From a virus: a stretch of DNA of 32,143 nucleotides. A program made the translations under genes and the position numbers. The stretch is from IMG/VR virus record IMGVR_UViG_3300017713_000040, one strand, 5' to 3'. A model generated the notes under the pieces. The model did not search any database. It was not told where the DNA came from and was given only the letters and a program-made list of their open reading frames with translations. Within the stretch, counting starts at the first letter, position 1; each line of letters begins with the position of its first letter. Below are positions 18,858 through 32,143 of this stretch, one piece after another.

Positions 18858-18883
18858 GTGCCAGTGTTGAGTTAAGGTTTGTA

Positions 18884-19042
18884 ATGATGCTCGCAGACAG
18901 GCTGAAGAAGTCTGTCCAAGAAATATTACAACTGACAACACTGGAGATAGAGATGTGGGCAGGTTATCTGATGTATGAGGACCAAGAGAGTAAGAAGACT
19001 ATGAAGCAACAGAAACAACAAACGAAGGCTAGGAGAAGATAA
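18884..19042 (+). CDS. Tail assembly chaperone T-like segment; independent 52-aa ORF or -1 frameshift extension from 18513
   Basis: The -1 frame is open from 18821 to 19042. A candidate slip site is A_AAG at 18848-18851. The motif EIEMWAGYL is present, and there is a TAATG junction with the tape measure gene. Confidence 0.4.
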   Translation: MMLADRLKKSVQEILQLTTLEIEMWAGYLMYEDQESKKTMKQQKQQTKARRR

Positions 19043-20868
19043 TGGCGAAGACTGATCTACTGATCAACATAGCGGTCAAAAACCAACAGGCATTAGGATC
19101 AATCAATAATCAATTGACCCGAATGTCAGGTTCTGGTTTGAAACTGAGCACGGTGCTAAAAGGTGCCGCGGCTGGTTTGGCGGCCTTTGGAGCGGTTAGG
19201 ATTGGATCATTCATTGTCAACACAACTAAAGAATTTGAAGACCTAAGAACCACATTGAGTTCAGTCACAGGTAGCACTGAACAAGGTGCTGAGGCATTCA
19301 GATTCATTAGTGAGTTCGCTACCAAGACCCAGTTTGGTGTTGATGACCTAACAAAGACTTTCATCAAGTTGAAAGCGGCGGGTATTGAACCAACCGAAGA
19401 ACTTCTAACAACATTCACAGACGCGGCGGCGGTGACTAATGACCAGATAGGATCATTAGAGGCTGTCACTGACTTGTTTGCCAGAACGGTAAAAGGTGGT
19501 CTAGGACTTGAAGAGATACAGAGACTTGGAGACAGAGGTATTCCGGTGTTGGCTATCTTGGAAGAGAAACTAGGACTCAGCAGGGCAGAAATATCGGAGT
19601 TTGGTAAGACGACAGAGGGCGCCGCGGCGATAACCAAAGCATTTGCTGAAGGTATCAATGAAAGATTTGGTGGTGCGACTCAGAAATTAGTATCAAACTT
19701 ATCTACAGAATTTTCCAACGCCAAGATCGCTCTACAGGGCGTGGCGGATGAATTCGGTCAAGGTATATCACCAGCATTGAAAGATGCCGTTGGTGGATTC
19801 ACAGCATTAGTAAATGAAAACAGAGAAACAATTTCAGCACTAGGAGAACTTACAGGCTTTGCCTTGAAGGCATTAATATCTGGATTGAATCTTGTCCTCA
19901 AGGCAATTGGCAATGTCATAGACTTCTTCAAAGATTTCGTTGGCACAGTCAAAGACACAATACAGGCAGTTAAGGATTTCAAGAATGATGTAGTTAACCA
20001 ATTCGAAAATATGAAAAAAGGCATCGGAGACAAGATGTCAAATGTTGGCGACAGCATCGTAGGAGGATTTCAAGACATCTATAACAAAGTAGTTGGCAAT
20101 TCAATCGTGCCTGACATGGTCGATGATGTTGGCAAAGAGATGGACAGGTTGGCATTCAACGCCGACAGGAGTCTAGGCACATATAGCGACGCGGTTCAAG
20201 AAAACATAGACAACGATGTCATACTTCAGGCTCTACACAGAACAATAGGAGAAGGGTTCACACCATTAGAAGGCAAGATCACGGCAGTGGCGGCAGGTAT
20301 GTCAGCATTCAAAGACACAGCGTCAAGCGCCTTGACAGATGTTATAATGGGCACTAAATCATTGAGAGATGCTTTGGGTGAGATAGTAAATTCAACATTA
20401 AGAGCATTGATACAAGGTTTCATTAATTTAGGTATCACAATATTCATATTGGAACCATTAGAAAGATTTTTAAGAAGACAAGTTGACACACAGAAAAAAT
20501 TAAACAGAGAATTAAAAGTAGAGATAGCACTTAGATCTATATTGGCTATGTTTGGCGGAGGCGGCTTTGGTATTCCGTTCTTTGCTGATGGTGGTAGAAC
20601 AACTGCCAACCAACCAATCATTGTGGGTGAAAGAGGACCAGAATTATTTGTTCCAAACACTTCAGGCACAGTGGTAGCCAATGACGAACTTGGTGTCAAC
20701 AGAGGCAATGCTAGTATGGGCGGTGGCGATGACATCAATGTCACTTTCAACATCAACACACTAGACGCAAGTGATTTCGATTCATTACTAACAACAAGGC
20801 AAGACTTGATCATAGGGTTGATCAACAGAGGTCTCGCTGAAAGAGGCAAAAGGAGTCTAACAGCATAA
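19042..20868 (+). CDS. Tape measure protein
   Basis: 608 aa. It is helical and Ala/Gly/Leu-rich with hydrophobic segments, and sits in the canonical position. Confidence 0.85.
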   Translation: MAKTDLLINIAVKNQQALGSINNQLTRMSGSGLKLSTVLKGAAAGLAAFGAVRIGSFIVNTTKEFEDLRTTLSSVTGSTEQGAEAFRFISEFATKTQFGVDDLTKTFIKLKAAGIEPTEELLTTFTDAAAVTNDQIGSLEAVTDLFARTVKGGLGLEEIQRLGDRGIPVLAILEEKLGLSRAEISEFGKTTEGAAAITKAFAEGINERFGGATQKLVSNLSTEFSNAKIALQGVADEFGQGISPALKDAVGGFTALVNENRETISALGELTGFALKALISGLNLVLKAIGNVIDFFKDFVGTVKDTIQAVKDFKNDVVNQFENMKKGIGDKMSNVGDSIVGGFQDIYNKVVGNSIVPDMVDDVGKEMDRLAFNADRSLGTYSDAVQENIDNDVILQALHRTIGEGFTPLEGKITAVAAGMSAFKDTASSALTDVIMGTKSLRDALGEIVNSTLRALIQGFINLGITIFILEPLERFLRRQVDTQKKLNRELKVEIALRSILAMFGGGGFGIPFFADGGRTTANQPIIVGERGPELFVPNTSGTVVANDELGVNRGNASMGGGDDINVTFNINTLDASDFDSLLTTRQDLIIGLINRGLAERGKRSLTA

Positions 20869-21452
20869 TGGCATTATTCACACCAAACAAAGGATACAAG
20901 GCATTGGACTGGCAGTCTAACACAAAAAGCAGGGTGACGACGGCTGTGTCAGGCAAGGTGCAAAGAATTAAAACAGGCGCACAACATTGGAGTTTCAAAC
21001 TACAATCACCTTCTATGTCAAGGGCAGAGTTAATGGCTGATTATAGTTTCGTTGTTCAATTGGATGGACAGGTGACATCATTCACTATCATACCACCGGA
21101 GATAGGAAGTGCAAGAGGCACAGCATCAGGCACATTGACCAATGATGCCACAGTGGCCGCAGGACAGAGTGCCTGTCAGACAGACGGTGGGTCAGGAACA
21201 ATATTAAAGGGAGATCTAATCAAGTTTTCAAACCACGACAAGGTATACATGGTCGTAGCGGACAAAACTATCTCAGGCACAAATGACGCAATCAATTTCT
21301 ATCCACCTTTGGTGACAGGTATTACAAATTCAACCACTGTGACTTATGACAATGTCCCTGTGAAAGTTTATATGGACAAGGACGAAGTAAAATTCATCAC
21401 ACAAACGGATGGTGCCTTCAAGTATGAAATAGTTTTGAATGAGGAGATATAA
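20868..21452 (+). CDS. Distal tail / lambda M-slot minor tail protein
   Basis: 194 aa, TAATG-coupled to the tape measure gene. Confidence 0.55.
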   Translation: MALFTPNKGYKALDWQSNTKSRVTTAVSGKVQRIKTGAQHWSFKLQSPSMSRAELMADYSFVVQLDGQVTSFTIIPPEIGSARGTASGTLTNDATVAAGQSACQTDGGSGTILKGDLIKFSNHDKVYMVVADKTISGTNDAINFYPPLVTGITNSTTVTYDNVPVKVYMDKDEVKFITQTDGAFKYEIVLNEEI

Positions 21453-21454
21453 AG

Positions 21455-22036
21455 ATGGCAAGAAGTATAGCGTCAGCGACTCAGACAAAGTTAGCAGGCA
21501 GTTCAGTATTTGTTGCTGATCTGATTGAACTACAATTATCTACAACACAATACCTAACAACCACAAATATCAACATTTCATTTGATAGTGCCACGGCTCC
21601 AGACGCCGGCACACAAACTTATTTGGCACAAGGACAATTTTTAAGTTATGGCAACATCGTTGAGACAACCGACCTAAGGATAGCAGAGATAGATATGGAA
21701 TTCACCGCCGTTGACACAACAACAATCGCTCTACTGACCAACAATGATTACATCAACAAAAGGGTGGTGATCTACAGAGCAATCCTAAATGATGATTACT
21801 CATTTGGTGCCGATGATGTGTATCTTGTTTTTGATGGTAAGGTCACTGGCTATTCAATCAGAGAATCAGACACCACAGCGACGGTCACAATATCCTGTGC
21901 ATCACAGTTCGCTGACTTTGAAAGAACAAATGGGAGAAAAACAAATCCGGCTTCACAGAATGTCCATTTTGCAAATGACAAAGGGATGGAGTTCGCACCG
22001 GAGTTAGTAAAAGACATAAGATGGGGGAAAGCATAA
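21455..22036 (+). CDS. Lambda gpL-like minor tail protein, lacking the Cys-rich C-terminus
   Basis: 193 aa. VFVADLIELQL..TQYL.T.....F.....TYLAQG...YGNI.ET.DLRI..IDMEFT parallels gpL vvLwEiDLt...erYff.....v.w.G..Y.pyPi... Confidence 0.55.
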   Translation: MARSIASATQTKLAGSSVFVADLIELQLSTTQYLTTTNINISFDSATAPDAGTQTYLAQGQFLSYGNIVETTDLRIAEIDMEFTAVDTTTIALLTNNDYINKRVVIYRAILNDDYSFGADDVYLVFDGKVTGYSIRESDTTATVTISCASQFADFERTNGRKTNPASQNVHFANDKGMEFAPELVKDIRWGKA

Positions 22037-22500
22037 TGAACATAGTTAGGGTATTAGACAAAAAAGACATCACACAGGTTTTGGATCTAGCATACAGAGC
22101 CGTTGTAGAAAGAGGTTGGGTTGATAGAGATTTCGACAAGACCAATTTCAATATACAGGTAAAAAACATTTTATCTTTAGAGAGCAATCTAGCATTTGGT
22201 CTCTTCAAGGATAATGTGTTGATTGGATTTGCCGTGGCACAGTTAGATCAGTTCCCTTGGAACACAAAAAGGAAATGCCATATTGATCTGATACACATGG
22301 ACACAGAACACAGACACGAAGCATACTACCAATTGTTATTGGACACGATATATGCTTTCTGTCGAGAAAATGAAATAAGACACATCAGGACAAGTTCGGC
22401 TTCTTATCTGTTCAACAATAAACAAGATAGGATATCGTTCTTGATCAAGAATGGATTTGACGAGGTTGATATAAACTGGGAGAAGGTAAGTGACTATTAG
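22036..22500 (+). CDS. GNAT-fold protein with a degenerate acetyl-CoA (motif A) loop
   Basis: TAATG start at 22036. The GNAT strand/helix pattern is visible (VRVLDKKDITQVLDL ... NVLIGFAVAQLD ... CHIDLIHMDTEHRHEAYYQLLLDTIYAFCRENEIRHI ... FLIKNGFDEV). R/Q-x-x-G-x-G/A is replaced by HRHEAY. Confidence 0.45.
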   Translation: MNIVRVLDKKDITQVLDLAYRAVVERGWVDRDFDKTNFNIQVKNILSLESNLAFGLFKDNVLIGFAVAQLDQFPWNTKRKCHIDLIHMDTEHRHEAYYQLLLDTIYAFCRENEIRHIRTSSASYLFNNKQDRISFLIKNGFDEVDINWEKVSDY

Positions 22501-22945
22501 ACCGTTTGTAAGAAAAGATCTAAAACAATGTTGTGAAATGGCACAACAACAGCACACCGAGAGCCTGTGGAGTCATCTACACTTCGATGGTGAGCGTGTT
22601 AAAAATTATTACCTCAACAGCATTGGCAATCCAAACTTCTGTGTGTTGGTGGCGGAACAGGATGGTGAAATAATAGGCGGAACTGCCTGTGGATTGAATC
22701 AATATGATTTTTCTTACAACACCTATGTCCAAGACATTTTCTTTTATGTCAAGCCTGAATTCAGGACAGGATCATTGGGTATAAAATTATACAAACAAGT
22801 TTATGAATGGGCCAAAGAGAAAGGTGCCTGTGAAGTTTATATAGGTTATGGATTTGGCAAAAACAACAAACAGATGGAGAGGTTCTATGAAAGATTAGGA
22901 TACGAACATCACATCGATTACTACAGGAAACCAGTTATAGCATGA
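22490..22945 (+). CDS. GNAT family N-acetyltransferase
   Basis: 151 aa with a GTG start overlapping the upstream stop. Motif A is YVKPEFRTGSLGIKLYKQVYEWAKEKGA, and the C-terminal part reads N.....FYERLGYE. Confidence 0.65.
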   Translation: MTIRPFVRKDLKQCCEMAQQQHTESLWSHLHFDGERVKNYYLNSIGNPNFCVLVAEQDGEIIGGTACGLNQYDFSYNTYVQDIFFYVKPEFRTGSLGIKLYKQVYEWAKEKGACEVYIGYGFGKNNKQMERFYERLGYEHHIDYYRKPVIA

Positions 22946-25059
22946 AGATCTACAACAAGATAGTCTTTGACAAAGACGACAACATCATAGAAGAAGATTC
23001 TTATGAATACTCAGGTCCAGTGGCACATTGTGGTGGCGGCAATCCTATCAAGAAAATTTTCAATCCAATAAAAAAAGTTTTCAAAAGTATTGTAAGAGGT
23101 GTGGGTAAAGTTTTTAGTGGACTTGTTTCAGCAATTACATCACCTTTTGGTTTCGACATTGACACACCAGATTTTGGAATAGGCACAGACCAAGTATCAG
23201 ACATCCAAGGAGTGATGCTGAACAAACAGTCAGCGATAGAACACATTCCTGTTGTGTATGGCACGAGAATGGTAGGAGGCACTCGTGTTTTTGTTTCTAC
23301 AAATGGATCAAACAACAAGTATCTTTTCGTTGATATGGTTATGGCAGAAGGCCAATGTAATGGCTTCACAAAATTATTAGTTGATGACACAGAGGTGCCT
23401 TTGACTTCATATGCTCACGGTGTGGTGGCATCACCATCATCGGGAGATTTCAAAGACAGAATGAAAGTTCAGTTCTTTGATGGCAGAGACGACCAAGTCA
23501 GTGCCAGTGATGGTTCAGGAGTGTTCGCTAACATAGACAGTTCAAACGGTGCTCCCGGTTGGACCAATCTACACAGATTATCGGGACTATGCCATATCGC
23601 TTGTAGATTCGAATGGAAAGAAATCAAGTCTCAAGATGACGCAAACAACAATCCTTACACAGGTGGCATACCAAACATAAAATTAGTGCTTCAAGGCAAA
23701 AAAATATTAGATGCCACAACATTGAGTGGCAGTCATTCAACATTGTATGACAACGAGACAAAGGTGTTTGACGACAATCCTGTTTCTGTTTTGCTTGACT
23801 ACATGAGATCGAGCAGATTCGGAAAAGGCTTGGCCAATGACGCATTTGATTTCGCTAGTTTCAAGACGGCGGCGGACCTTTGTGAACAGACCGTGGCATA
23901 CACTTCTTCAACAACGGGCAAGGCATTCACTTGTAATGCAGTGGTCAATACAGCCAACAGTATCTTGGCCAATTGTAAAATATTGTTGATGGGTTTCAGA
24001 GGGATCATGCCATACCAACAGGGCAAATACAAATTACAGATCGAACACGGCGGAGACAACACAGACATCACAGCAACGCCAACCAATCCATCCACTGTAT
24101 TCTCAATCACCAATGACCATATCGTTGGGGGAATAAGTCTAGAAGGTGAACACAAGAACGCAAAGATCAATAGATGTATTGTGACCTTCGTTGATCCAGG
24201 CACAGACGACAATGTTTCATACCAACCAAACCAAGTGGTGTATCCTGAAGAAGGTAGCGCCATTGATGTGGCAATGCTGGCAGAAGATGATGGCAAAAGA
24301 TTACAGAAAGAGATCGTGTTGCCAACGGTGACCAGCAGAGAACAGGCCTTACAATATGGAGAAGTATTCACCAAGAGATCAAGGACTTCAAAATATGTGA
24401 CATTCGGCACGACACTGGCAACATCGAACACAGGTGTTGGTGACCTAATCAACATTGAAAATGAACACATAGGATTGAATGGTATATTCAGAATAGTTGA
24501 AATGAAGATAGATGCCGGTGGTGACATAATCATCGGTGCTGTTGAACACCAGCCAACAAACTATGAGATAGCGGCAAAATCAATAGCGGCCACTAGGCCA
24601 ATCATAAATTTACCAAACCCAATTGGCTTGGTCAATCCGCCAACAGGCATCGTTTACACATCTTTTGGTTTTTCAGGTGCAGGTGTGATCACCTTAGTGG
24701 TTAGACCCATTGGTGAGATTAGGTTTTCGCCAAGCACTGACACAAACATCACTCATTATAGGTTTGGCGTCAAGATGAAAGGTTCTACAGAATCAGAGGT
24801 AAATTATTTTGACAAATCTGTATCAACTTTGACCTTTGACAGCACCAATAATCAATTTGTCTATCAGTTGATGGCGTCGGATGTCAAGACCAAAGGCGGT
24901 GTAGATGCAGAAGGCACGATTAGAATATATGCTATCAACAACCAAGGCAACCAATCCGCACCAGCGGAGTTGGTCGTGGCCAAGATAGCATCTATAAAAC
25001 AGAATGTTGTGACTCAACAGGTCACACAGTCATCAACCAATGTTAATTTGAACCCATAG
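22942..25059 (+). CDS. Central tail fibre / host specificity protein (lambda J-like) with a gpI-like N-terminal segment
   Basis: 705 aa. IPVVYGTRMVGGTRVF resembles the gpI C-terminal LPVLYGEMRVGSRVV. NPVSVLLDYMRSSRFGKGL..DAFDFASF..AADLCEQTV resembles J NNMAWCLWDMLTHPRYGMGKRLG...CDQSV. Further J-like blocks follow. Confidence 0.8.
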   Translation: MKIYNKIVFDKDDNIIEEDSYEYSGPVAHCGGGNPIKKIFNPIKKVFKSIVRGVGKVFSGLVSAITSPFGFDIDTPDFGIGTDQVSDIQGVMLNKQSAIEHIPVVYGTRMVGGTRVFVSTNGSNNKYLFVDMVMAEGQCNGFTKLLVDDTEVPLTSYAHGVVASPSSGDFKDRMKVQFFDGRDDQVSASDGSGVFANIDSSNGAPGWTNLHRLSGLCHIACRFEWKEIKSQDDANNNPYTGGIPNIKLVLQGKKILDATTLSGSHSTLYDNETKVFDDNPVSVLLDYMRSSRFGKGLANDAFDFASFKTAADLCEQTVAYTSSTTGKAFTCNAVVNTANSILANCKILLMGFRGIMPYQQGKYKLQIEHGGDNTDITATPTNPSTVFSITNDHIVGGISLEGEHKNAKINRCIVTFVDPGTDDNVSYQPNQVVYPEEGSAIDVAMLAEDDGKRLQKEIVLPTVTSREQALQYGEVFTKRSRTSKYVTFGTTLATSNTGVGDLINIENEHIGLNGIFRIVEMKIDAGGDIIIGAVEHQPTNYEIAAKSIAATRPIINLPNPIGLVNPPTGIVYTSFGFSGAGVITLVVRPIGEIRFSPSTDTNITHYRFGVKMKGSTESEVNYFDKSVSTLTFDSTNNQFVYQLMASDVKTKGGVDAEGTIRIYAINNQGNQSAPAELVVAKIASIKQNVVTQQVTQSSTNVNLNP

Positions 25060-25067
25060 GAGAATAG

Positions 25068-25940
25068 ATGTCGGGAACAGGATTTTTTGATGTAGGACAA
25101 GCAGTTTATCTGCCCAAGGACACATTGACTTGGGCCAATCTAGGATCATCACCTTACGGCAGTTGGGACTCCTACACAACATGGTATAAGAATCTCACAT
25201 CAAGTTCAACCGTGGCATTCACATCTGCCATCATTGACTTTGGTAGGAGTGCCAAGGTGGTGCCACAGATAACTTTATCAACAGCCAAAGACGGCAACCT
25301 TACAGAATCTATCACACTTGACTCTAGTAATGACGACATACCACAGTTCCTTATAGAAGGCAGTGACAACAGCGACATGAGTTCGGCCACATCAGTCACA
25401 TTGACAAGGACATCTAATCCGGACTTCACAAGTCTAGGAGCAAAAAGATATTACAGGGTGACAACGACAATTGACGCAGGTTCAAACACATTGCCTAACG
25501 CGATATCGGGAATAAACATAGATCTTAACACCACAACACAAGAAGAGATAATTGAAAGTTTCAACACGGCCACGGTTGATGACGGTAGCACCACAACAAG
25601 GGTAGTGCCAACAAACAATACATTCACAGACATTCAATTTGTAGGCATAACGCCTAGGACAGAGGTCAGTGACACCGTTGTGACAGGCAGTGGCGGTGCT
25701 GTGTCTTTGTATGTGGCCAGTGGCTATGTCAATACAGGTTATTTCGTTGGTGATACCAGTAGTGTATCAACAGGTTCAATCACATCAGTGCCTTTGGCTA
25801 GATGTGTTAGTAAATCGACTAACAATTTCACTATACAGGTGTATCTGCCTAACAACGCAACAGACACGAACGGCACATTTGATTTCTTGGTCAAAGGACT
25901 GCCTGTGGTGTCCATAAGTGCCGAGGGCAATTTAGAATAG
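25068..25940 (+). CDS. Tail-tip/fibre-associated hypothetical protein
   Basis: 290 aa with AGGAG SD, S/T-rich, directly after the J-like gene. Confidence 0.6.
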   Translation: MSGTGFFDVGQAVYLPKDTLTWANLGSSPYGSWDSYTTWYKNLTSSSTVAFTSAIIDFGRSAKVVPQITLSTAKDGNLTESITLDSSNDDIPQFLIEGSDNSDMSSATSVTLTRTSNPDFTSLGAKRYYRVTTTIDAGSNTLPNAISGINIDLNTTTQEEIIESFNTATVDDGSTTTRVVPTNNTFTDIQFVGITPRTEVSDTVVTGSGGAVSLYVASGYVNTGYFVGDTSSVSTGSITSVPLARCVSKSTNNFTIQVYLPNNATDTNGTFDFLVKGLPVVSISAEGNLE

Positions 25941-25969
25941 TTAAATATAAACAATAGGAGAAACAAACA

Positions 25970-26404
25970 ATGGCTTGGCCAACAAATGATTCAAACATAG
26001 ACACTTCAAACCTGGACGCAGGCACGGCTAATCCTGCCAGTGCTAGACCAAATTTAAAGACAGCACTTGATGAGATCAAGAACATCATCAATGGTCGTAA
26101 TGAAGCGTCAGGTGTTGCTGGCATAGACGCCAGTTCAAAGATTTCAAACGCACAACTGCCTGACACCATAGTCAGTAGCAGTTCAACAGACTTGACATTG
26201 ACACCAACAACAGGAACGGTCAACATCAACTCTGTATTACAGATGAATCCACAATCAAGATCAGCCTTGTATGCAAGATCAGATCTAGCAGATGGTATGA
26301 TAGCAATGGCATCAGATGGTGATTCAACCGTTGATACACCTGTGTATTATGCTGGTGGTGTGTGGAGATATTTTTCAGACAATTCTGAAGTGTCGAGTTC
26401 ATAG
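25970..26404 (+). CDS. Short tail fibre-like protein
   Basis: 144 aa with AGGAG SD. The N-terminus MAWPTNDSN...ARPNLKTALDEI is paralogous to ORF 5987. Confidence 0.6.
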   Translation: MAWPTNDSNIDTSNLDAGTANPASARPNLKTALDEIKNIINGRNEASGVAGIDASSKISNAQLPDTIVSSSSTDLTLTPTTGTVNINSVLQMNPQSRSALYARSDLADGMIAMASDGDSTVDTPVYYAGGVWRYFSDNSEVSSS

Positions 26405-26427
26405 GATTCCTGTGACGAGGTCAGTGA

Positions 26428-26685
26428 GTGCAAAACTTCAACGAGCGATTACAAAAATACGGCTATTGGCGGTGTGAGAAATTGACCCCTAGGGGCAAGG
26501 GCAGTCATATGAGATGCCTCGGAGACAAACATTCATGCCGTTTCATCTTACACAAACAACCACGCAGTGAAGTGACGAAACTGCCACCAAGATACACAAG
26601 AAAAGAACACAACAGATTAGACTCTTACAGTTTCGACTATTTCATCAAGACAGAGATCAATCGGTTGAGAAAACCACCCAAGTAA
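26428..26685 (+). CDS. Small basic protein with weak HicA/YcfA-like features
   Basis: 85 aa with a GTG start 7 nt after GAGG. LQKYGYW....PRGKGSHMRC.......FILHK loosely matches HicA l.k.Gf....qkGSH.......v.vP.H. Confidence 0.45.
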   Translation: MQNFNERLQKYGYWRCEKLTPRGKGSHMRCLGDKHSCRFILHKQPRSEVTKLPPRYTRKEHNRLDSYSFDYFIKTEINRLRKPPK

Positions 26686-26701
26686 TTTGGTCTAGACCAA
26701 A
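26686..26701. promoter_or_regulatory. Perfect 16-bp palindrome TTTGGTCTAGACCAAA (operator candidate)
   Basis: The sequence is self-complementary. It starts at the first base after the stop of ORF 26428 and lies 79 bp upstream of the -35 at 26780. Confidence 0.5.
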
Positions 26702-26779
26702 CCTTACCAACCAAACACTACCAAAACCGCTTCTATTATAGCCTTTAAACTTACACAGACGCCTGTATATCAAAAAGTC

Positions 26780-26807
26780 TTGACATCTGGTAGCATTGGA
26801 CTATATA
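26780..26807 (+). promoter_or_regulatory. Sigma70-type promoter: TTGACA-N16-TATATA
   Basis: TTGACA lies at 26780-26785 and TATATA at 26802-26807. The geometry matches the promoters at 32010 and 27155, with an ATG 6 nt after the -10. Confidence 0.6.
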
Positions 26808-26813
26808 CTTGTG

Positions 26814-27150
26814 ATGTAGGCAATTTTTAGGCAATAGACAACTCAACAAAGGCACAAAGTTTTGGCAGTTATCTAAGAAACTGTGGGGTGTAAAGAACGC
26901 ACCGTCCTAGTAGCACACTATAAAACCTTAAGGCGTTTTAACCAACAAGCCAGTTAGGTGATTTTGTGTGTGAGGCAGAGAGGCCAGGGACACGAATCAG
27001 ACCGACAAACCACTCTCAAAAATTTCGCGTTCTGGTAATCTGAATGTTAGACAAAAATGAATAGGTCCATTGAAGAGAAAACTTTACGAGTCCTTTAGGA
27101 CGAAGTAATCGTCGTCATAGACGACGAACTCAGTGCTTTCGCACTTCGTA
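26814..27150 (+). ncRNA. Candidate ~340-nt non-coding transcript
   Basis: It begins with the start-stop ATG-TAG (26814-26819). All three frames are stop-dense, and the longest ATG ORF is 13 codons with no SD. It ends in a compact multi-hairpin structure (27100-27149). Confidence 0.4.
26817..26835 (+). repeat. Direct repeat TAGGCAAT-ttt-TAGGCAAT (11-nt period) at the predicted 5' end of the transcript
   Basis: Copies lie at 26817-26824 and 26828-26835. Confidence 0.7.
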
Positions 27151-27154
27151 TTTC
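27100..27154 (+). terminator. Two-hairpin structure with competing outer stem, then a T-rich tail; possible terminator or attenuator
   Basis: Hairpin 1 is TCGTCGTC-ata-GACGACGA (27109-27127). Hairpin 2 is AGTGC-tttc-GCACT (27132-27145). ACGAAGT (27100-27106) can pair with ACTTCGT (27143-27149). The tail reads TATTTCTT. Confidence 0.35.
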
Positions 27155-27183
27155 TTGACATCTCAATTGAATTCAATTATAAT
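27155..27183 (+). promoter_or_regulatory. Consensus sigma70 promoter: TTGACA-N17-TATAAT
   Basis: TTGACA lies at 27155-27160 and TATAAT at 27178-27183. The ATG at 27190 is 6 nt downstream. Confidence 0.8.
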
Positions 27184-27189
27184 CGTGTT

Positions 27190-27399
27190 ATGTCAGATCA
27201 ATTAAAATTTTTAAAGAAATGCAATGATCATTGTGAATTGTTTCTACAAGAAACATCCAATTCGTGTCACTACTCGTGCCTGAGATGTCGAGAGCACGGG
27301 TTCATCAAATGGCTCAGTTATGAACAACATTGGGAACTCGCTGAAGTGATGTCACCGCCACAAGGAATACACATCGACGAATATCTAGAGGTTAAATAG
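27190..27399 (+). CDS. Leaderless Cys-rich small protein (zinc-binding candidate)
   Basis: 69 aa. Cysteine spacing is CNDHC(x10)CHYSCLRC. The ATG lies at the predicted transcription start. The GTG start at 27133 in the ORF track lies upstream of the promoter. Confidence 0.55.
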   Translation: MSDQLKFLKKCNDHCELFLQETSNSCHYSCLRCREHGFIKWLSYEQHWELAEVMSPPQGIHIDEYLEVK

Positions 27400-27693
27400 T
27401 TTTGTCCTACTCCTTGCAAAACGAGAGGGACAAGGCAAGATGCCATCTTCTGACAGGCATCTTTCCCCTTCGCTGGGTGGTTCTTATCTAAATCTATTGC
27501 CATACATTTAAATCCCCACCCAGCACTCTATTTCATATCACCTGCATTTATATCTGCTTAAATATAAACGCATCCAACGGTTAGTCATGGTCTCCCAAGA
27601 CTAAGGCGTGCTCTAAAGATCCGTTGGATGCACTTAATAAGTAGGGGACCATCTTGTCGGTGGCCATATCCTTGATGGTCCCTTTAAAAAACA
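27400..27693 (+). other. ORF-free 294-nt spacer folded into at least five consecutive stem-loops; structured RNA leader, ncRNA or ori candidate
   Basis: The stems lie at 27402-27433, 27437-27463 (8 bp), 27472-27524 (9 bp), 27544-27571 (10 bp with 1 mismatch), 27570-27631 (11 bp with a nested 6-bp hairpin) and 27645-27682 (9 bp). Confidence 0.5.
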
Positions 27694-28017
27694 ATGTCAG
27701 ATTTCATAGAACACAACAGACAGAATCACCCAGCGGTGTTGGAACGGGTAAGGAACAACATCATTAGAGAAAGCCAGAACTATGATCGTTGGGAAGAGTT
27801 CATTAAACAGGCCAAATACAACATTCACAGATTCGTCGATGGTGTAGTGGACATAGATCAAGAAGGTTATGAACCAGCACCACAGATCAGAGAAGTCTAC
27901 ATGGATGTGGATGAATGGATGGAAACACGCCATTTCTTATTATGGTTGGCAGAAGGCAAGAACAAACCCAAGTGGTTGGAAAAGGAGTTGGTTTGGCAAC
28001 TACTGAAAGCAGAATAA
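27694..28017 (+). CDS. Hypothetical early protein
   Basis: 107-aa ORF with no SD (A-rich leader). Its 3' end overlaps the methyltransferase frame. Confidence 0.5.
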   Translation: MSDFIEHNRQNHPAVLERVRNNIIRESQNYDRWEEFIKQAKYNIHRFVDGVVDIDQEGYEPAPQIREVYMDVDEWMETRHFLLWLAEGKNKPKWLEKELVWQLLKAE

Positions 28018-29192
28018 TCAACGGCGACTCAGCCATCGAACTCAAGAAGTTCGCAGACAATTCAATTGATGCTGTCATAACAGATCCACCATATGGCATA
28101 GAATTTTTAGCAAAGGATTGGGACCGAAACACAGGCGCAGTGGAGATATGGCAGGAATGTCTCAGGGTATTGAAGCCAGGTGGATTCCTGTTGGCCTTTT
28201 CGGCGGCAAGGACCTATCACAAACTGGCCACCAACATTGAATCAGTGGGATTTGAGATCAGGGATCAGATAATGTGGCTGTATGCTTCAGGATTCCCCAA
28301 GGCACAGGACATAGGCAAAGCAATCCAAAGACGACAGGGTGTTGAAGAGACAATGTCATTGGAAGAGTATGAAAAATTAACGGGTGTGACCAATCTTCCT
28401 AAAGGCAATCAAACATTTGGACACAACGACGACACAGATGGACAAAAATCTGCAGGATTGAGTGGACGGATAACCATACCCACATCACCAGAAGCACAAA
28501 AGTGGTCAGGTTGGAAGACACAATTAAAGCCAGCACACGAACCCATATGTATGGCAAGAAAACCATTCAAAGGTAGTCACATAGACAATGTATTAAAACA
28601 CGGTGTTGGAGCATTAAACATAGATGAGTCAAGGATACCATATATGGATGCAGGCGAGATCAACCCTTGCATCCCCCAAGCAGGTCGTAGGACAGCGTCA
28701 TTTTCATTTGGTCATAAACCAACACAATCAGGTGGTGATGGATCTCCAGAATTTGTTGCCAATGAAAAAGGTAGATTCCCTTCAAATGTGATAGGTGAAG
28801 TAGAAGGTTATCAAAAGTTCTTTTATTGTCCTAAAGTTAGTAGAAAAGAAAGAAATCTAGGTTGTGAAGATATAGAAGCAAAACCATTGTTCAAAGACCG
28901 CCACCGAGACGCAAAAGCATTGGGCAGTTGGGCGGACAAACGAGACCAAGCACACAGGAACCATCATCCAACTGTGAAACCTGTGGCATTAATGAAGTAT
29001 TTGGTGAATTTGGTCACCCCTTTAAACACACACATATTGGATCCATTCGCGGGATCAGGCACAACGGGCATGGCCTGTAAAGAACTGGGCAGGAGTTTCA
29101 CGGGCATAGAGCAGGATCCAGCATATTGTGACATAGCAAGACGCAGGATATCTGCAACAAAAACAGACCCTAAAAACTGCCTTTTCGAGTAG
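27993..29192 (+). CDS. Beta-class (motif IV before motif I) N6-adenine/N4-cytosine DNA methyltransferase, orphan
   Basis: Motif IV is AVITDPPYGIEF and motif I is ILDPFAGSGTTGMACKELGRSFTGIEQD. The preferred start is TTG 27993, 5 nt after AAGGAG (27982-27987). The alternative ATGs at 27915 and 27942 lack an SD. Confidence 0.85.
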   Translation: MATTESRIINGDSAIELKKFADNSIDAVITDPPYGIEFLAKDWDRNTGAVEIWQECLRVLKPGGFLLAFSAARTYHKLATNIESVGFEIRDQIMWLYASGFPKAQDIGKAIQRRQGVEETMSLEEYEKLTGVTNLPKGNQTFGHNDDTDGQKSAGLSGRITIPTSPEAQKWSGWKTQLKPAHEPICMARKPFKGSHIDNVLKHGVGALNIDESRIPYMDAGEINPCIPQAGRRTASFSFGHKPTQSGGDGSPEFVANEKGRFPSNVIGEVEGYQKFFYCPKVSRKERNLGCEDIEAKPLFKDRHRDAKALGSWADKRDQAHRNHHPTVKPVALMKYLVNLVTPLNTHILDPFAGSGTTGMACKELGRSFTGIEQDPAYCDIARRRISATKTDPKNCLFE

Positions 29193-29255
29193 ATCTCAAC
29201 CGCAGGTTGTAAAATATCCCCCAAAAACCCCCATATTATGGCACTTTTCTGCCGG

Positions 29256-29283
29256 TTGACGCTATCGTATGCCGTGTTATACT
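29256..29283 (+). promoter_or_regulatory. Sigma70-type promoter: TTGACG-N16-(TGt)TATACT
   Basis: TTGACG lies at 29256-29261 and TATACT at 29278-29283. An ATG at 29289 follows 5 nt after the -10. Confidence 0.65.
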
Positions 29284-29306
29284 CTAGTATGAACAAAGGG
29301 AGAACA

Positions 29307-30065
29307 ATGTTAGAAAAGAGCACAAAAAAACAATATCCGTTTACACTACAGGCGGACGCAACTTTTAGGTTTGAGCCAGTAGGCGAACAATTGGCTGAAT
29401 GGCGAGAGATGGTAGGTAATTTCTACAAAGATTACCTTGACGCAGGTGATTCATTGAGTGATGAAGCCGGAAGGGGAACCGCGATGATCATACCGGGTTT
29501 GACAGATGACATACACGATTATCTAGTCAAAATAGGTGATGACACAGTTGGTTGGGTTACCATTAAGAGTATGGACGCAATCTTAAACGGTCAGTCAGTA
29601 GGTGAAGATACACGGATAGAAAATGTGTATGTGAAGCCAGAATTCAGAGGCTTTGGTATAGCACAAAGGATCTACGAGAAATGTATCAACGAACACCATG
29701 CCACACAGATACATTTAAGTTTCGCTAGGATTTCAGGCCCTAACAACCAGCAGTATTGGAAGTCAATTGGTTTCAACTTTGTTTCAATCCAGTTGGGCCA
29801 GATGGGTGGCAGACAGGCCCTATGTGCTTTGTTGACAGAATTACCACCAGCGCCTGCCATGAAAGGCCTGTATCATTGGTTAGACAGGGATGGCGTCAAA
29901 AACGCCAAGAGATTCAGTGAGAAGGTTGCTAAAGCCTATATGAGAATGACAGGTAGAAGCAGTGATGAATTACAAGTGAACCAGCACCTTTTGAGACCGG
30001 TGCTAGAACGGATCAATCACAAAGTAGAATACCTTAACCCAGAAATTTTAGAAGAGTATGTATAA
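29307..30065 (+). CDS. GNAT family N-acetyltransferase with a ~90-aa C-terminal extension
   Basis: Motif A is VYVKPEFRGFGIAQRIYEKC. GGGAG lies 5 nt before the ATG at 29307. An in-frame leaderless alternative start is at 29289. The ORF-track start at 29238 lies upstream of the promoter. Confidence 0.7.
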   Translation: MLEKSTKKQYPFTLQADATFRFEPVGEQLAEWREMVGNFYKDYLDAGDSLSDEAGRGTAMIIPGLTDDIHDYLVKIGDDTVGWVTIKSMDAILNGQSVGEDTRIENVYVKPEFRGFGIAQRIYEKCINEHHATQIHLSFARISGPNNQQYWKSIGFNFVSIQLGQMGGRQALCALLTELPPAPAMKGLYHWLDRDGVKNAKRFSEKVAKAYMRMTGRSSDELQVNQHLLRPVLERINHKVEYLNPEILEEYV

Positions 30066-30089
30066 TCAACAACAACAGAGAGAGGACAA

Positions 30090-30821
30090 ATGACAACAAA
30101 GACCTTAAAAACAGAAACAGGACTATCAGCGGCAGACTACATGAGAAAGGCGACCCTAGAAACATCGCTCGAGAAGTTCCATCCGGACCTTCACGATGCT
30201 GTCAGACAGAGACACGAGAGCGTCCAGATAGACGAATCGCGAGGCAGTATGACCACGAGTTGGACATTGGGACAACTATACACGCCAGAGGCCAGCAAGA
30301 AGTTCGCTAGGGAGATAGAGAAGTTCGTGACCAAGAACAAGAGCCGTATCAAGAAGTTGGGCGAGAGATACAGGCACCTACAGGCAGAGATGTCAAAGGC
30401 TGACAAGGCCAGGGATCAATTGAGGAGCAACAACTATGACAACTACCACAACACCAGAGATGCTTGGAAGAACATGGCCAAGCCGTTGGGAATACATCCT
30501 ATACTGACTGACAAAGGCCAGATCAGCAGGAGCAAAATGCAGAAGGTAGTGCAGAAGAAAGGTGAGAAAGAGGCCAAGAGGCTGTTGGATATCTACAACG
30601 AGCAGTATATCCCACAAGTGAACAAGGCGCTGAAGAAGGCACAGGCCAACACCAAAACACTGAGTCAAGCAGACTCCAACAAGATAGAGTCTAGGAATAG
30701 ATTGGTGCCGGAGTGTAATGAGGTGCTGAAACAGTTGGCCCTGTTGAGTGCCAACACCTACGATGCTAGAAAGGACGAATTCAAGAAGATCGAAGGCTAT
30801 TGGGGCAGTGATTACTTCTAA
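30090..30821 (+). CDS. Hypothetical K/R/E-rich helical protein
   Basis: 243-aa ORF with a GAGAGAGG SD-like sequence upstream. Confidence 0.6.
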   Translation: MTTKTLKTETGLSAADYMRKATLETSLEKFHPDLHDAVRQRHESVQIDESRGSMTTSWTLGQLYTPEASKKFAREIEKFVTKNKSRIKKLGERYRHLQAEMSKADKARDQLRSNNYDNYHNTRDAWKNMAKPLGIHPILTDKGQISRSKMQKVVQKKGEKEAKRLLDIYNEQYIPQVNKALKKAQANTKTLSQADSNKIESRNRLVPECNEVLKQLALLSANTYDARKDEFKKIEGYWGSDYF

Positions 30822-30853
30822 AAAGTGTTGTATTTTTACAACACCTACATAGG

Positions 30854-30881
30854 TTGACGCATCGCCAAGATGTGCTACAAT
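30854..30881 (+). promoter_or_regulatory. Sigma70-type promoter: TTGACG-N16-(TGc)TACAAT
   Basis: TTGACG lies at 30854-30859 and TACAAT at 30876-30881. The leader ATGAACAAA...GGGAGAA is homologous to that of the promoter at 29256. Confidence 0.7.
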
Positions 30882-30917
30882 TTAGAATGAACAAACAACA
30901 AAAAGGGAGAAAATAGT

Positions 30918-31466
30918 ATGGGACAAGCGAAGTTAGAATGGAAATTGGACACCGAAGAAGGCAAGGTGACCACACTGGGCCACGACCTGTTCTCGGAACC
31001 AGACAATTGGATATTCAGAGATGACGCAGAAGATCCAGATGAAACACTTGAATTCGCAGAGAAGCAATTGGCGGATCACATATGGAACAAAGGTCGAATC
31101 AGAACCACGGTGCTGATACACGACAATGGTGCCTACGGACACAGAACAGAGATCGAACCCAAGAGATACGAAGACCTCGATCGATTGTATAGTTGGTGTG
31201 CAGAGAACATCACACAATCCGTCTACATGGACACGGTGATCTATCCGTGCAATGACTATGTGTGTGATAATTGTTTCAAGGAAGTGGATGAACCAGAGAC
31301 CAGAGAAGAGATACTCGAGGCAGGTTATGTGTTGAATGATCACTACGATCTAGTGTTGTTGGCACACGCAACACCCGAACAGAGAGGTGCCCACATGGCC
31401 AAGACCGCAGACCCAGAAGCAATGAGCCGGAAGTATCTGTTAGACGCAATAAAGGAGCCAGCATAA
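30918..31466 (+). CDS. Hypothetical acidic early protein
   Basis: 182-aa ORF with AGGGAG SD, visibly D/E-rich. Confidence 0.65.
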   Translation: MGQAKLEWKLDTEEGKVTTLGHDLFSEPDNWIFRDDAEDPDETLEFAEKQLADHIWNKGRIRTTVLIHDNGAYGHRTEIEPKRYEDLDRLYSWCAENITQSVYMDTVIYPCNDYVCDNCFKEVDEPETREEILEAGYVLNDHYDLVLLAHATPEQRGAHMAKTADPEAMSRKYLLDAIKEPA

Positions 31467-31606
31467 TGAGATACAAGATAGTGATCGGCACAGGAGAGAA
31501 CCAAGAGACTACAACTTGGATAGAAGCAGACTCCGTAGCCGAAGCAAGAGAACAAGTGACTATTGAGGTAAGCAGAGACCCAGAGATTGCAGAGCAATCC
31601 GCGTAA
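31466..31606 (+). CDS. Small hypothetical protein (46 aa), below the ORF-track cutoff
   Basis: There is a TAATG junction at 31464-31468, and AAAGGAG (31451-31457) lies 8 nt upstream. Confidence 0.4.
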   Translation: MRYKIVIGTGENQETTTWIEADSVAEAREQVTIEVSRDPEIAEQSA

Positions 31607-31792
31607 GGTTGATATAGTATTACGACCCTAACGACAGCACGATACACACCGTATGACCGTATCAAAGGGTAGCATATCTACGGCTATAGACTGGGTAAGG
31701 CCGACCTTGTGCCAGTCACTGCCAACCATACTACATCCTGTGTCAGCCTACCATACGGCCACCATTGGGCCAGAATTGGAATGGTATTGGGG

Positions 31793-31831
31793 TTGACATC
31801 TGATCATTCTGTGTTATAATTGTATTATAAT
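31793..31831 (+). promoter_or_regulatory. Sigma70-type promoter: TTGACA-N16-(TGt)TATAAT, with a second TATAAT 5 nt later
   Basis: TTGACA lies at 31793-31798, TATAAT at 31815-31820 and a second TATAAT at 31826-31831. Confidence 0.65.
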
Positions 31832-31909
31832 CCTACCGGTGTGACCGTATTACCATCCTATTAGAAAGATCCTGCTAGGGTGGCTCACGGTTCTGACGGT
31901 GGCACCAGG

Positions 31910-31938
31910 TTGACAACCGTTTGGTAATAGTGTATAGG
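31910..31938 (+). promoter_or_regulatory. Weak promoter candidate: TTGACA-N17-TATAGG
   Basis: TTGACA lies at 31910-31915. The -10 at 31933-31938 lacks the final T. Confidence 0.3.
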
Positions 31939-32009
31939 CCGTCCCCTGAAATGGTAAACTAGGGTGGGCCTAGTAGCATTGTAAAAATATCTACCAAACC
32001 GGGGGTCAA

Positions 32010-32037
32010 TTGACAGGAACCAGATCCGTGCTATAAT
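32010..32037 (+). promoter_or_regulatory. Sigma70-type early promoter: TTGACA-N16-(TGc)TATAAT
   Basis: TTGACA lies at 32010-32015 and TATAAT at 32032-32037 (= 12-17), preceded by an extended -10 TG. The ATG of the first ORF follows 6 nt after the -10. Confidence 0.75.
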
Positions 32038-32143
32038 TGTGGTATGAAAACATTTAAAAAAACACAGACCATGTTAGATAGGGTAGACCCGGTCAGGATC
32101 CGGAATCACATCGTGTTCCTTGATGGCCAGATCAAGGCCTATA
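32021..32143. repeat. End duplication copy 2, identical to 1-123
   Basis: Exact repeat of the window start. It includes the TATAAT and the first 100 nt of ORF 24-266. Confidence 0.9.

Follow-up and report, generated by a model that had tools for sequence, protein, structure and literature searches.

A 32,143-nt stretch of virus record IMGVR_UViG_3300017713_000040, analysed whole and here called the window (all coordinates refer to it), very probably carries, at 26780-27156 on the + strand, an independent gene whose product is a structured, roughly 335-nt non-coding RNA with predicted ends. We call this product type A RNA and its gene, made up of promoter, RNA and terminator, the cassette. Comparison with related sequences indicates that both the sequence and the base pairing of type A RNA are under strong purifying selection, on the + strand. 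We think it likely that the RNA works in trans; that it does so specifically by protein binding or as a decoy is a tentative proposal. The explanation as a whole, in which an independent gene yields a trans-acting RNA that binds protein or serves as a decoy, we favour somewhat, with most of the weight on its first two steps.

A preliminary description of the window had proposed a dedicated promoter-driven unit without a protein product. That proposal holds up: the unit is conserved above its neighbours, keeps its own promoter and terminator even where it is inverted, covaries in its stems and has no conserved ORF. Its features are not due to chance, since diverged relatives keep its promoter hexamers, AGGCA repeats and hairpins, and do so with compensatory changes.

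Distribution and genomic setting of the cassette

The cassette recurs in six marine sequence types. Type A loci among the relatives are L011, L030/35/38/44, L033/42/43, L036/37/39-41 and L048; on the last of these our covariance model, R1, scores 105 bits. The preliminary description had staked its reading on conservation of sequence and structure in relatives, and both were found: the cassette is 79-94% identical, against 64-74% for the DNA of flanking structural genes and 35-60% for flanking proteins, and its base pairs covary. It is the best-conserved DNA within a 15-kb neighbourhood, at 79-89% identity in that comparison.

Cassette and protein genes are co-directional in the window, in L011 and in the L036-type genomes. 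The L030-type and L033-type genomes have it on the strand opposite to all protein genes, where it runs towards late genes from their 3′ side and nothing downstream is left for it to regulate. Because both orientations occur, we regard the cassette as autonomous. The different orientations, together with mosaic flanks, also suggest horizontal exchange of the cassette, which could account for part of its high core identity.

These arrangements bear on a reading in which the RNA serves the early genes downstream as a cis-acting leader, either a put/nut-like antiterminator or a riboswitch-like attenuator. The unit does lie directly upstream of early genes, and co-directional with them, in the window, L011, L036 and L048, and its terminator is weak, so that read-through is plausible. 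Such a leader is nevertheless very unlikely, given that the L030- and L033-type cassettes point into late-gene 3′ ends and that the downstream gene differs among genomes with the same RNA type. In the window that gene encodes a 69-aa protein and has its own 12/12 promoter and leaderless ATG (27155-27192, + strand, ATG at 27190), outside the RNA; a role as leader of this particular gene was rejected on these grounds. The 69-aa protein is conserved in L011 and the L036-type genomes and was not found beside the cassette in L030- and L033-type loci.

Upstream, the late operon ends in a conserved gene (26428-26685, + strand) for an 85-aa basic, Cys/His-rich, zinc-finger-like protein, which public gene callers miss. 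It adjoins the cassette in all 14 type A loci compared. The protein is found by tblastn in L011, L030/35/44, L033/42/43 and L036/37/39-41, and homologous ORFs are present in L012 and L015. The cassette sits at a mosaic junction and lies where the late and early modules meet. The terminase small-subunit gene is about 17 kb away.

The phage belongs to an orphan uncultured family related to the pelagiphages, and it is common in the sea: one of its proteins is indexed in 86 blocks of a public assembly collection, and ten seawater contigs that we fetched are 99.9-100% identical in the RNA region.

Beyond the type A loci, neither nhmmer nor R1 detected a type A RNA in the family relatives L012-L029, and R1 had no match in L031, in L032 or in the genomes of DSL-LC06 (L046) and HTVC111P (L047). 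Other RNA bodies stand behind the same leader in several of these type-A-negative genomes. In L012-L018, the type A slot is taken by unrelated structured RNAs (types B and C/D) that follow the same promoter and AGGCA leader. We treat homology in DSL-LC06 as tentative, because its best nhmmer match, although it falls in the syntenic gap, has an E-value of 0.05, and R1 does not recover the region even with filters off. A blastn search with this gap matched only itself, and the parts of the DSL-LC06 description seen (PMC10611076) are silent on the locus. With positions 26400-27700 of the window, blastn found no match among 50,697 phage records. When 185,579 bacterial and archaeal genomes were scanned for 20-mers, the one match was isolated and due to chance, in a Limiplasma MAG; there is hence no evidence for a host-encoded homologue or a prophage copy. 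A loosened motif scan returned mostly unrelated coding sequences and was discarded.

Promoter and AGGCA leader

The predicted promoter is of the sigma-70 type (26780-26809, + strand), with a −35 element TTGACA at 26780-26785 and an extended −10 element TATATACT at 26802-26809. The −10 can be read as TATATA (26802-26807, spacer 16) or as TATACT (26804-26809, spacer 18). The preliminary description had placed a strong promoter here, and our promoter scan scores it 11/12, one of four + strand sites of at least 11/12 in 20000-32143. In every cassette variant, and in the type B, C and D units as well, TTGAC and TATATA never change, and the spacer varies over 17-18 nt. Also present are the two leaderless gene promoters with which it had been compared, TTGACA-N17-TATAAT-N6-ATG at 27155-27192 and TTGACA-N16-TATAAT-N6-ATG at 32010-32046. 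Since the cassette promoter is of the same class as these leaderless early-gene promoters, we infer that type A RNA would be transcribed early, by host RNA polymerase, from about position 26814. Taking the 5′ end from the position of the −10 and the 3′ end from a terminator-like hairpin, the predicted RNA runs from 26814 to 27154 on the + strand, some 335-340 nt.

At its predicted 5′ end the window reads ATG (26814-26816) followed at once by TAG (26817-26819). This start-stop, to which the preliminary description had drawn attention, is shared by L011 only; it is missing in L030, L033, L036, L048 and L012-L018. Other variants have ACATAGGCA, CAATAGGCA, CAAAGGCA or AATCAGGCA at this position, so we read the TAG as part of a conserved (A)TAGGCA motif and the ATG as incidental. 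A regulatory start-stop ORF was rejected, as the AUG-stop is not conserved among homologues or in type B, C and D units.

What is conserved is the pentamer. The 5′ leader (26818-26855, + strand) has three sense-strand AGGCA copies, at 26818-26822, 26829-26833 and 26850-26854, in an A/C-rich context. The whole unit has four, against 0.37 in shuffled sequences (p<0.001), and no copy of the reverse complement. Every related unit, RNA types B, C and D included, has 2-4 copies inside its first 40-80 nt; the enrichment reaches p≤0.01 in 10 of 12 units, and the reverse complement is absent throughout. The repeat additionally heads other RNAs and one mRNA.

The first two copies in the window form the direct repeat TAGGCAAT-ttt-TAGGCAAT (26817-26835), described earlier as having an 11-nt period of one helical turn. 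The repeat stands but its period does not: copies are spaced 9-13 nt apart in the marine units, with the third 21-34 nt further on, and 22-29 nt apart in the DSL-LC06 unit. A strict helical-turn DNA operator was rejected for this reason. Somewhat broader is the idea of an element that acts purely as DNA (operator or iteron repeats, DNA hairpins, a recombination or packaging site) and has no RNA function. The 11-bp period just past the −10 of the window and the position of the cassette at a mosaic junction would suit it. We consider it extremely improbable: the repeat spacing varies, AGGCA always follows a conserved promoter and lies on the transcribed strand, and the G-U pairs and one-sided changes described below fit only a + strand RNA. 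A packaging site would also be misplaced, as pac sites usually lie within the terminase small-subunit gene.

Fold, covariation and coding potential

From 5′ to 3′, type A RNA would fold as the single-stranded A/C-rich AGGCA leader, a small hairpin, a near-invariant irregular rod of about 160 nt, which may contain a pseudoknot, then a variable linker and finally three 3′ hairpins; all features lie on the + strand. Hairpin 1 (26865-26884) pairs CAGTT 26866-26870 with AACTG 26879-26883. Compensatory changes occur in two of the six pairs of this helix, which in L033 is CAAGTT/AACTTG.

The core (26884-27043) is a long irregular hairpin of nested helices, with a mean column identity of 93% over 184 columns in five types. 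Its helices are GGGGT/ATCT; AGAACGC 26894-26900 with GCGTTCT 27027-27033; GTCCT 26904-26908 with GGGAC 26987-26991; GCACAC 26913-26918 with GTGTGT 26966-26971; and AAACC/GGT..TTT. Helices 2-4 are invariant or altered solely to G-U, and helix 5 covaries (ACC/GGT to GTC/GAC). An internal AGGCA is at 26973-26977. The apical hairpin GGC-GUUUUAACCAACAA-GCC (26932-26951) is invariant in five sequence types; L048 has a larger domain in its place and keeps AACCAAACAAGC. GAGAG 26978-26982 and CTCTC 27013-27017 form a candidate pseudoknot that would cross the GTCCT/GGGAC helix. Its arms are invariant except in L036, where G replaces A and a G-U pair results, and DSL-LC06 has a possible counterpart, AAGCG/TGCTT. 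The linker (27044-27083) differs in length and sequence in every type, with indels of 12-26 nt.

Of the three 3′ hairpins, hairpin A (27084-27108) pairs TTAC 27084-27087 with GTAA 27105-27108 and GTCC 27090-27093 with GGAC 27098-27101. Three of the eight pairs of these helices (9 and 10) show compensatory changes, TTAC/GTAA passing to TTGC/GCAA and TTGT/ACAA. The preliminary description had instead paired ACGAAGT (27100-27106) with ACTTCGT (27143-27149) in an outer helix. That helix was rejected: the GT to GC to AC changes in its 5′ arm leave an invariant, uncompensated 3′ arm and are compensated in hairpin A. The two hairpins described earlier at 27109-27127 and 27132-27145 are both there. 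Hairpin B (27109-27127), TCGTCGTC-ata-GACGACGA, forms helix 11, with compensatory changes in seven of eight pairs (GGTCATC/GATGACC, AGACGAAC/GTTCGTCT). Hairpin C with its U-rich tail (27128-27156), in which AGTGC 27132-27136 pairs with GCACT 27141-27145 across tttc, is listed by the terminator scan as a predicted weak intrinsic terminator, and transcription would stop at this hairpin. Here ACTCAGTGCTnTCGCACTTCGT is invariant in all types; L030-type variants have an extra second hairpin, GAGACTACGTCTC, followed by CCTTTT.

Over the whole fold 15 of 67 predicted pairs show compensatory changes, a number reached by none of 500 shuffles, so that the check for such changes suggested in the preliminary description came out in its favour. 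Paired cells amount to 98.5%, against 32-41% with the partners slid. Twenty-seven G-U cells fit the + strand alone; they would be A-C mismatches on the opposite strand and so assign the RNA to the + strand, where pairing is 98.5% against 90.4% on the − strand. The single-sequence fold is no more stable than shuffles (z = −0.85), and its z-score reaches significance on neither strand. Since six marine types and one doubtful freshwater homologue are known, most core helices are invariant and lie outside the covariation test. About 190 nt are nearly invariant, loops included, while the 3′ stems are fully covaried.

One-base indels, and the fact that no ORF is conserved, exclude coding. Within 26814-27154 ATG-initiated ORFs have at most 13 codons, as had been noted, although stop-free stretches reach 26-33 codons. 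GTG-initiated ORFs of 24-26 aa occur, none of them conserved in relatives, and no ORF is common to the variants. Both a small-protein gene and a degraded protein gene were rejected, as the 1-nt indels lie inside the conserved core and no reading frame is conserved.

Nor does the unit fit a family in Rfam 15, the covariance search proposed earlier. No match was obtained at gathering thresholds in the whole window or in seventeen related loci. The sole match at E≤10 in 26300-27800 is a chance snoRNA outside the unit, and five loci including DSL-LC06 gave only chance matches at E≤5. The families covered include 6S, tmRNA, RNase P, SRP, ROOL, GOLLD, HEARO, IMES, riboswitches, ribozymes and group I/II introns, and ARAGORN found no tRNA or tmRNA in the window. 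6S RNA, a rod that has a central bubble like an open promoter and binds the sigma-70 holoenzyme, does not fit: no Rfam 6S model matches, and the consensus rod has one large 3′-sided internal loop (about 35 nt opposite 3 nt) and three extra 3′ hairpins.

Possible modes of action and significance

Type A RNA would act in trans, most likely by binding protein, whether as a ribonucleoprotein scaffold or as a decoy (sponge). A host or phage factor may recognise its invariant unpaired elements: the AGGCA motifs, the junction GAGGCAGAGAGGCC..GGGACACGAAUC..ACAAACCACUCUC and the apical AACCAACAAGC strand. Early in infection, this would affect host takeover or counter-defence. We favour a role in protein or tertiary contacts over simple antisense because about 190 nt including loops are near-invariant, no exceptional target of the apical loop was found on the phage's own transcripts, and the short sense-strand motif AGGCA recurs both in the leader and within the core. 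Roles as primer or origin, antisense RNA or cis-acting leader are less likely than that of an early trans-acting protein-binding RNA.

A trans-acting antisense riboregulator, whose invariant single strands would pair with a conserved host RNA (mRNA, rRNA or tRNA) or a phage transcript, would fit a stand-alone unit with its own promoter and terminator, an orientation independent of neighbour genes and invariant unpaired stretches such as GUUUUAACCAACAA. We judge it unlikely. Typical base-pairing sRNAs keep a short conserved seed, whereas some 190 nt are conserved here, and L048 replaces most of the apical loop. On the + strand of the phage itself, RNAduplex gives that loop no better target than chance (its best duplex has −15.1 kcal/mol, and the best duplexes of shuffled loops average −16.5).

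Another candidate is a transcribed origin or primer RNA similar to ColE1 RNA II, in which a persistent RNA-DNA hybrid, of the kind that RNase H cleaves and Pol I extends, would prime the leading strand by host enzymes and no phage replication proteins would be needed. The preliminary description had recognised no replication genes, and we agree: the + strand has 47 ORFs of 50 aa or more, and among the 38 scanned with Pfam and PHROGs, the whole early region included, there was no replication protein. Like RNA II, type A RNA has a sigma-70 promoter and is a structured, ORF-free RNA of a few hundred nt (here about 340), at the junction of late and early modules, in a replicon without its own replication proteins. 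But it has no antisense promoter of the RNA I kind, the promoter scan listing no − strand site within 26780-27154, and the flanks are without DnaA boxes, CtrA sites or an AT-rich unwinding element. The unit ends in conserved terminator-like hairpins. Its inversion in two lineages would reverse fork direction against all transcription, and the unrelated RNA bodies (B, C/D) in the same slot are hard to square with a conserved origin. GC skew is uninformative on the origin. All told, we find a primer role quite improbable.

Among RNAs that bind proteins, the sponges CsrB/RsmZ and CrcZ resemble type A RNA in having short sense-strand repeats in unstructured or loop contexts within an RNA of several hundred nt; the A/C-rich leader and the logic of protein titration are further likenesses. 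CsrB and RsmZ carry GGA motifs, those of the Csr/Rsm system sitting in hairpin loops and having CsrA/RsmA as their partner, and CrcZ carries CA motifs. In type A RNA the motif is AGGCA, which has GG and is neither the A(N)GGA consensus nor AANAANAA. It is mostly in the predicted single-stranded leader, and its 3-5 copies are far below the motif numbers of classical sponge RNAs, which counts against a sponge. Most of type A RNA is a near-invariant structured core, not a series of hairpins carrying the motif.

HK022 put, lambda nut, P4 CI RNA and P1 C4 RNA are also structured RNAs immediately downstream of an early promoter. These act in cis on an early operon transcript or are processed from one, whereas type A RNA has its own terminator, is antisense to all genes in two lineages, is much larger and has no Rfam similarity.

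Closer in kind are ROOL and GOLLD, which are likewise stand-alone, promoter-driven and highly structured phage RNAs with strong sequence conservation that includes unpaired regions, and which have no known biochemical role. Type A RNA, of about 335 nt against their 580-800 nt or so, has no sequence or structure match to them and differs in its AGGCA leader and in its slot of alternating unrelated RNAs. ROOL and GOLLD are large structured RNAs associated with phages and prophages, of unknown function, for which cryo-EM structures have been described (PMC12286853).

That slot invites a further and rather doubtful suggestion, a modular RNA arsenal in which a shared early promoter and AGGCA 5′ handle are fused to interchangeable, unrelated structured RNA bodies (A, B, C/D). 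Cassettes would swap and invert at one locus, beside a DNA methylase and acetyltransferases. The bodies would be RNA effectors, for example decoys or inhibitors of host defence or of the gene-expression machinery, and a single common factor, recruited by the AGGCA handle, would see to stability, processing or delivery. If true, the arsenal would do with RNA what other phages do with their islands of anti-defence proteins.

A new class of RNA of about 335 nt would be of interest in itself, selection on it apparently being as strong as on catalytic or ribonucleoprotein RNAs. It offers testable objects: the AGGCA handle, the junction that does not vary and, next to the cassette, the zinc-finger-like 85-aa protein. 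It is more unusual for one promoter and AGGCA leader to stand before at least three unrelated structured RNAs in alternation. Their alternation suggests that phage-host interaction in the ocean has an RNA-based layer, one that gene callers and protein-centred annotation miss entirely.

A promoter-bearing unit conserved in marine phages

The preliminary description claimed a promoter-driven, ORF-free transcript of ~340 nt at 26780-27154, and every feature it listed is present at the coordinates it claimed. On the + strand the -35 element TTGACA (26780-26785) is followed by a -10 of TATATA (spacer 16) or TATACT (spacer 18), by ATG-TAG (26814-26819), by the direct repeat TAGGCAAT-ttt-TAGGCAAT (26817-26835) and by hairpins at 27109-27127 and 27132-27145, with a potential ACGAAGT/ACTTCGT pairing of 27100-27106 with 27143-27149. 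The promoter scores 11/12 in our promoter scan and is among four + strand sites of at least 11/12 in 20000-32143; the leaderless geometry (TATAAT-N6-ATG) ascribed to the two comparison promoters, 27155-27192 and 32010-32046, is true of both. The longest ATG-initiated ORF is indeed no more than 13 codons; the unit also contains stretches of 26-33 codons free of stops and GTG-initiated ORFs of 24-26 aa.

To find relatives we used the neighbouring 144-aa protein and DNA patterns. The unit (26780-27156) was found in six marine sequence types, here given as phage contigs and genomes: the window, L011 (94%), L030/L035/L038/L044, L033/L042/L043, L036/L037/L039-L041 (79-89%), and L048, whose apical domain differs and which scores 105 bits with R1, a covariance model for type A (the name used here for the window's RNA). 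The blocks recur in the order promoter, AGGCA leader, core, variable linker and 3′ hairpins. Across a 15-kb comparison the unit is the best-conserved DNA (79-89% identity versus 64-74% for structural genes), and the proteins adjoining it are only 35-60% identical. In L030-type and L033-type genomes the cassette lies on the opposite strand to every protein gene and converges on the end of the late operon. Because the -35, the -10 and the 3′ hairpins are kept while orientation and neighbours change, the unit is, on this comparative evidence, an independent transcription unit without a role as leader of the downstream gene. A cis-acting leader is highly improbable, given the inverted cassettes and a downstream gene that has its own promoter.

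The start-stop ATG-TAG is seen in the window and L011 only. The predicted transcript start in other variants is ACATAGGCA, CAATAGGCA, CAAAGGCA or AATCAGGCA, and from these alignments the TAG is part of a conserved (A)TAGGCA motif. A protein product is excluded at the sequence level because the conserved core has 1-base indels and no common ORF was found among the variants. The idea of a dedicated transcription unit with no protein product is thus borne out by conservation, independence of orientation, strand-specific pairing and the lack of a shared ORF.

RNA structure, strand and the AGGCA leader

Folded as a single sequence, the unit shows no unusual stability (z = -0.85 for the + strand, -1.68 for the - strand), so the case for function rests on relatives. 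RNAalifold on five types predicted 67 pairs; compensatory double changes occur in 15. On this structure 98.5% of cells pair, versus 32-41% with partners slid 1-3 columns, and the observed count of covarying pairs was reached in none of 500 column shuffles. Covariation backs five helices: hairpin 1 (CAGTT/AACTG); the distal part of the long core helix (ACC/GGT to GTC/GAC); the outer (TTAC/GTAA to TTGC/GCAA to TTGT/ACAA) and inner (GTCC/GGAC to GTCT/AGAC) stems of hairpin A, the first of the successive 3′ hairpins A, B and C; and hairpin B, with seven of eight pairs changed. Hairpin C and the basal core helices are neither supported nor contradicted by the alignment, since they are invariant or change to G-U only. 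The outer ACGAAGT/ACTTCGT helix, earlier proposed to compete with the second hairpin, finds no support: sequence changes in the 5′ arm are compensated in hairpin A but not within this helix. GAGAG (26978-26982) with CTCTC (27013-27017) is a candidate pseudoknot crossing the GTCCT/GGGAC helix.

Twenty-seven G-U cells fit the + strand; the opposite strand would give A-C mismatches, reducing pairing from 98.5% to 90.4%, which points to an RNA read in the promoter's direction. This strand specificity also leaves an element acting purely at the DNA level as an extremely improbable explanation.

The repeat period of one helical turn claimed for the 5′ end is not conserved among relatives. In the marine units AGGCA copies are spaced 9-13 nt apart and a third follows another 21-34 nt on; in the unit of the freshwater phage DSL-LC06 the spacing is 22-29 nt. 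The alignments do show a recurrent sense-strand motif: every related unit has two to four AGGCA within its first 40-80 nt, always on the transcribed strand, and the reverse complement was never seen in these units. Of 12 units, 10 are significantly enriched for the motif, and the type-A core holds one more, invariant AGGCA (26973-26977). The leader also heads one ordinary mRNA, in L015 at 6909 (Shine-Dalgarno and a 72-aa ORF), and a short ORF-free unit in L033.

Genome surroundings and alternative RNA bodies

The window is a complete, circularly permuted assembly of ~32,019 bp. Its ends are identical (32020-32143 and 1-124), so the assembly is circular or terminally redundant, and the ORF at 24-266 is the same leaderless gene as that starting at 32044. 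The source is an uncultured tailed phage of seawater with every gene on the + strand; many seawater metagenomes hold the same genome (26405-27914 is 99.9-100% identical in ten contigs). Recognisable genes encode terminase, portal, scaffold, capsid, tape measure, tail proteins, a DNA methylase and GNAT acetyltransferases. Late genes have a TAGGAGA-type Shine-Dalgarno, and early genes are leaderless at consensus promoters. A ColE1-like primer or origin would suit a phage in which no replication protein was recognised in the 38 ORFs scanned (of 47 + strand ORFs of 50 aa or longer: all but nine short ones in the head-tail module, with the early region covered entirely), but neither an antisense promoter nor origin features were found, and cassette inversions and alternative RNA bodies also speak against it, so that we think it quite unlikely.

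Public gene callers called no genes in 26405-27914. We find conserved small + strand genes of 85 aa (26428-26685), 69 aa (27190-27399) and 107 aa (27694-28017), and the stretches truly without an ORF are 26686-27189 and 27400-27693. The 85-aa ORF (GTG start, basic, Cys/His-rich with C..C..H.C) is a real gene overlooked by those callers; tblastn shows it conserved in relatives. In each of the 14 type-A loci compared it adjoins the RNA cassette, and L012 and L015 have homologous ORFs close to their type B and D units. The protein has no match in Pfam or PHROG and could be a nucleic-acid-binding regulator. Directly after its stop codon is a perfect 16-bp palindrome, TTTGGTCTAGACCAAA (26686-26701), then an A/C-rich tract; the palindrome could be the late-operon end or a binding site.

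The second ORF-free stretch, 27400-27693 (+), between the 69-aa and 107-aa genes, has, as read by eye, about five inverted-repeat hairpins, including GCATCCAACGG (27571-81) with CCGTTGGATGC (27622-32), and GGGACCATC with GATGGTCCC before a T/A run. It is 82% identical in L011, appears by eye to resemble L012 at ~7590-7720, and could represent a further structured RNA or a 3′ UTR. Farther on, 31598-32043 (+) has no ORF and includes a 12/12 promoter at 31793 (TTGACATCTGAT...). The promoters at 31793, 26780 and 27155 share the start TTGACATCT; no ORF lies between those at 31793 and 32010, and a second promoter-driven non-coding unit of ~190 nt may lie there. The segment 31630-31779 is 83% identical in L011 (8445-8592), there ~400 nt past the 107-aa gene. 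L011, the closest relative, appears to lack a block of ~3.6 kb (27915 to ~31600) with the methylase, a GNAT gene and others, which therefore looks like an accessory insertion. At 29196-29291 a terminator hairpin (CAACCGCAGGTTG), C-rich tract and TTGACG-N16-TATACT promoter form a conserved module; in the span compared (14000-29300), alignments of it run from 29188-29197 to 29260-29265 with 79-85% identity in L033, L035 and L037. The GNAT gene probably has a leaderless start at ATG 29289, in frame with the called ATG 29238.

At the same locus, behind the same promoter and leader, relatives carry quite different ORF-free RNAs: type B (L012:6806-7125, L014:6816-7125), type C (L013:6938-7340; L017:7990-8409, - strand) and the inverted type D (L015:3505-3934, - strand; L018/L019, in L018 at 7135-7548, - strand). 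Types C and D are mutually homologous and form one family, with 19 compensatory pairs among four sequences, conserved blocks such as ACACACCCTnTnnATTGTGTAG, and a hairpin loop UAGGCWAGG. It occurs in 17 IMG/VR contigs (L068-L084; 14 distinct sequences). AGGCA leader repeats are present in 13 of the 14, as tight tandems in 12 and wider spaced in L077; only L073 is without them. Eight of nine further C/D contigs share proteins with the window, and all nine belong to its phage family. Type A, B and C/D RNAs have no Rfam match.

By portal protein the nearest phages are DSL-LC06 (46%) and the HTVC111P-group Pelagibacter phages (42-44%). DSL-LC06 (L046, OR003941.1) is a metagenome-assembled phage described as an orphan group (PMC10611076); the RNA locus is unmentioned in the passages on this phage consulted there. 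Its genome has a 755-nt unannotated gap at the syntenic position (573-1327), with a -10 element, four AGGCA in the leader and five in the unit as delimited. Two segments resemble the type-A core, e.g. GGGGGTTAAAACACGACCCGTCC and GCGAGGCAAAGCGACCAAGGACA...GATAAACCA. The best nhmmer match in this genome falls exactly in the gap, but at E=0.05, and R1 did not recover it; the gap is a probable but unproven distant type-A homologue.

Possible action and relation to known RNAs

The comparisons show an autonomous promoter-bearing cassette whose + strand base pairing is under selection, as is, very strongly, its primary sequence over ~190 nt, unpaired positions included. Its promoter class is that of the leaderless early genes, which suggests that host RNA polymerase transcribes it early. 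Termination would be at hairpin C, probably leaky in co-directional genomes. The RNA would act in trans, the sole reading that fits both orientations.

The 3′ stems have fully diverged through compensatory change and the core is almost frozen, so the core constraint would be functional and not due to recent transfer alone. Such constraint is typical of RNAs with extensive protein or tertiary contacts and atypical of seed-type antisense RNAs. We therefore favour, tentatively, an RNA that binds protein, as a ribonucleoprotein scaffold or as a decoy, and that would be recognised through its AGGCA motifs and its invariant junction. A base-pairing regulator acting on a conserved host RNA seems unlikely. 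The apical loop resembles the ribosomal-operon boxA (9/12 match; ~0.1 chance probability), a lead only.

Functionally, type A most resembles ROOL and GOLLD, likewise stand-alone, ornate, phage-associated RNAs without a known role; protein-sponging sRNAs likewise have a repeated short motif, as in the type-A unit. Type A lies outside all of these because no Rfam model matched it, and with respect to Rfam 15 it is a new family. Its kind, a phage-encoded structured ncRNA, is already known. To our knowledge there is no close precedent for the arrangement, in which one promoter-leader handle is joined to alternative structured RNAs, unrelated to one another, that replace each other and change orientation at a single locus. 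For these phages it may, with rather low probability, represent a modular arsenal of RNA effectors.
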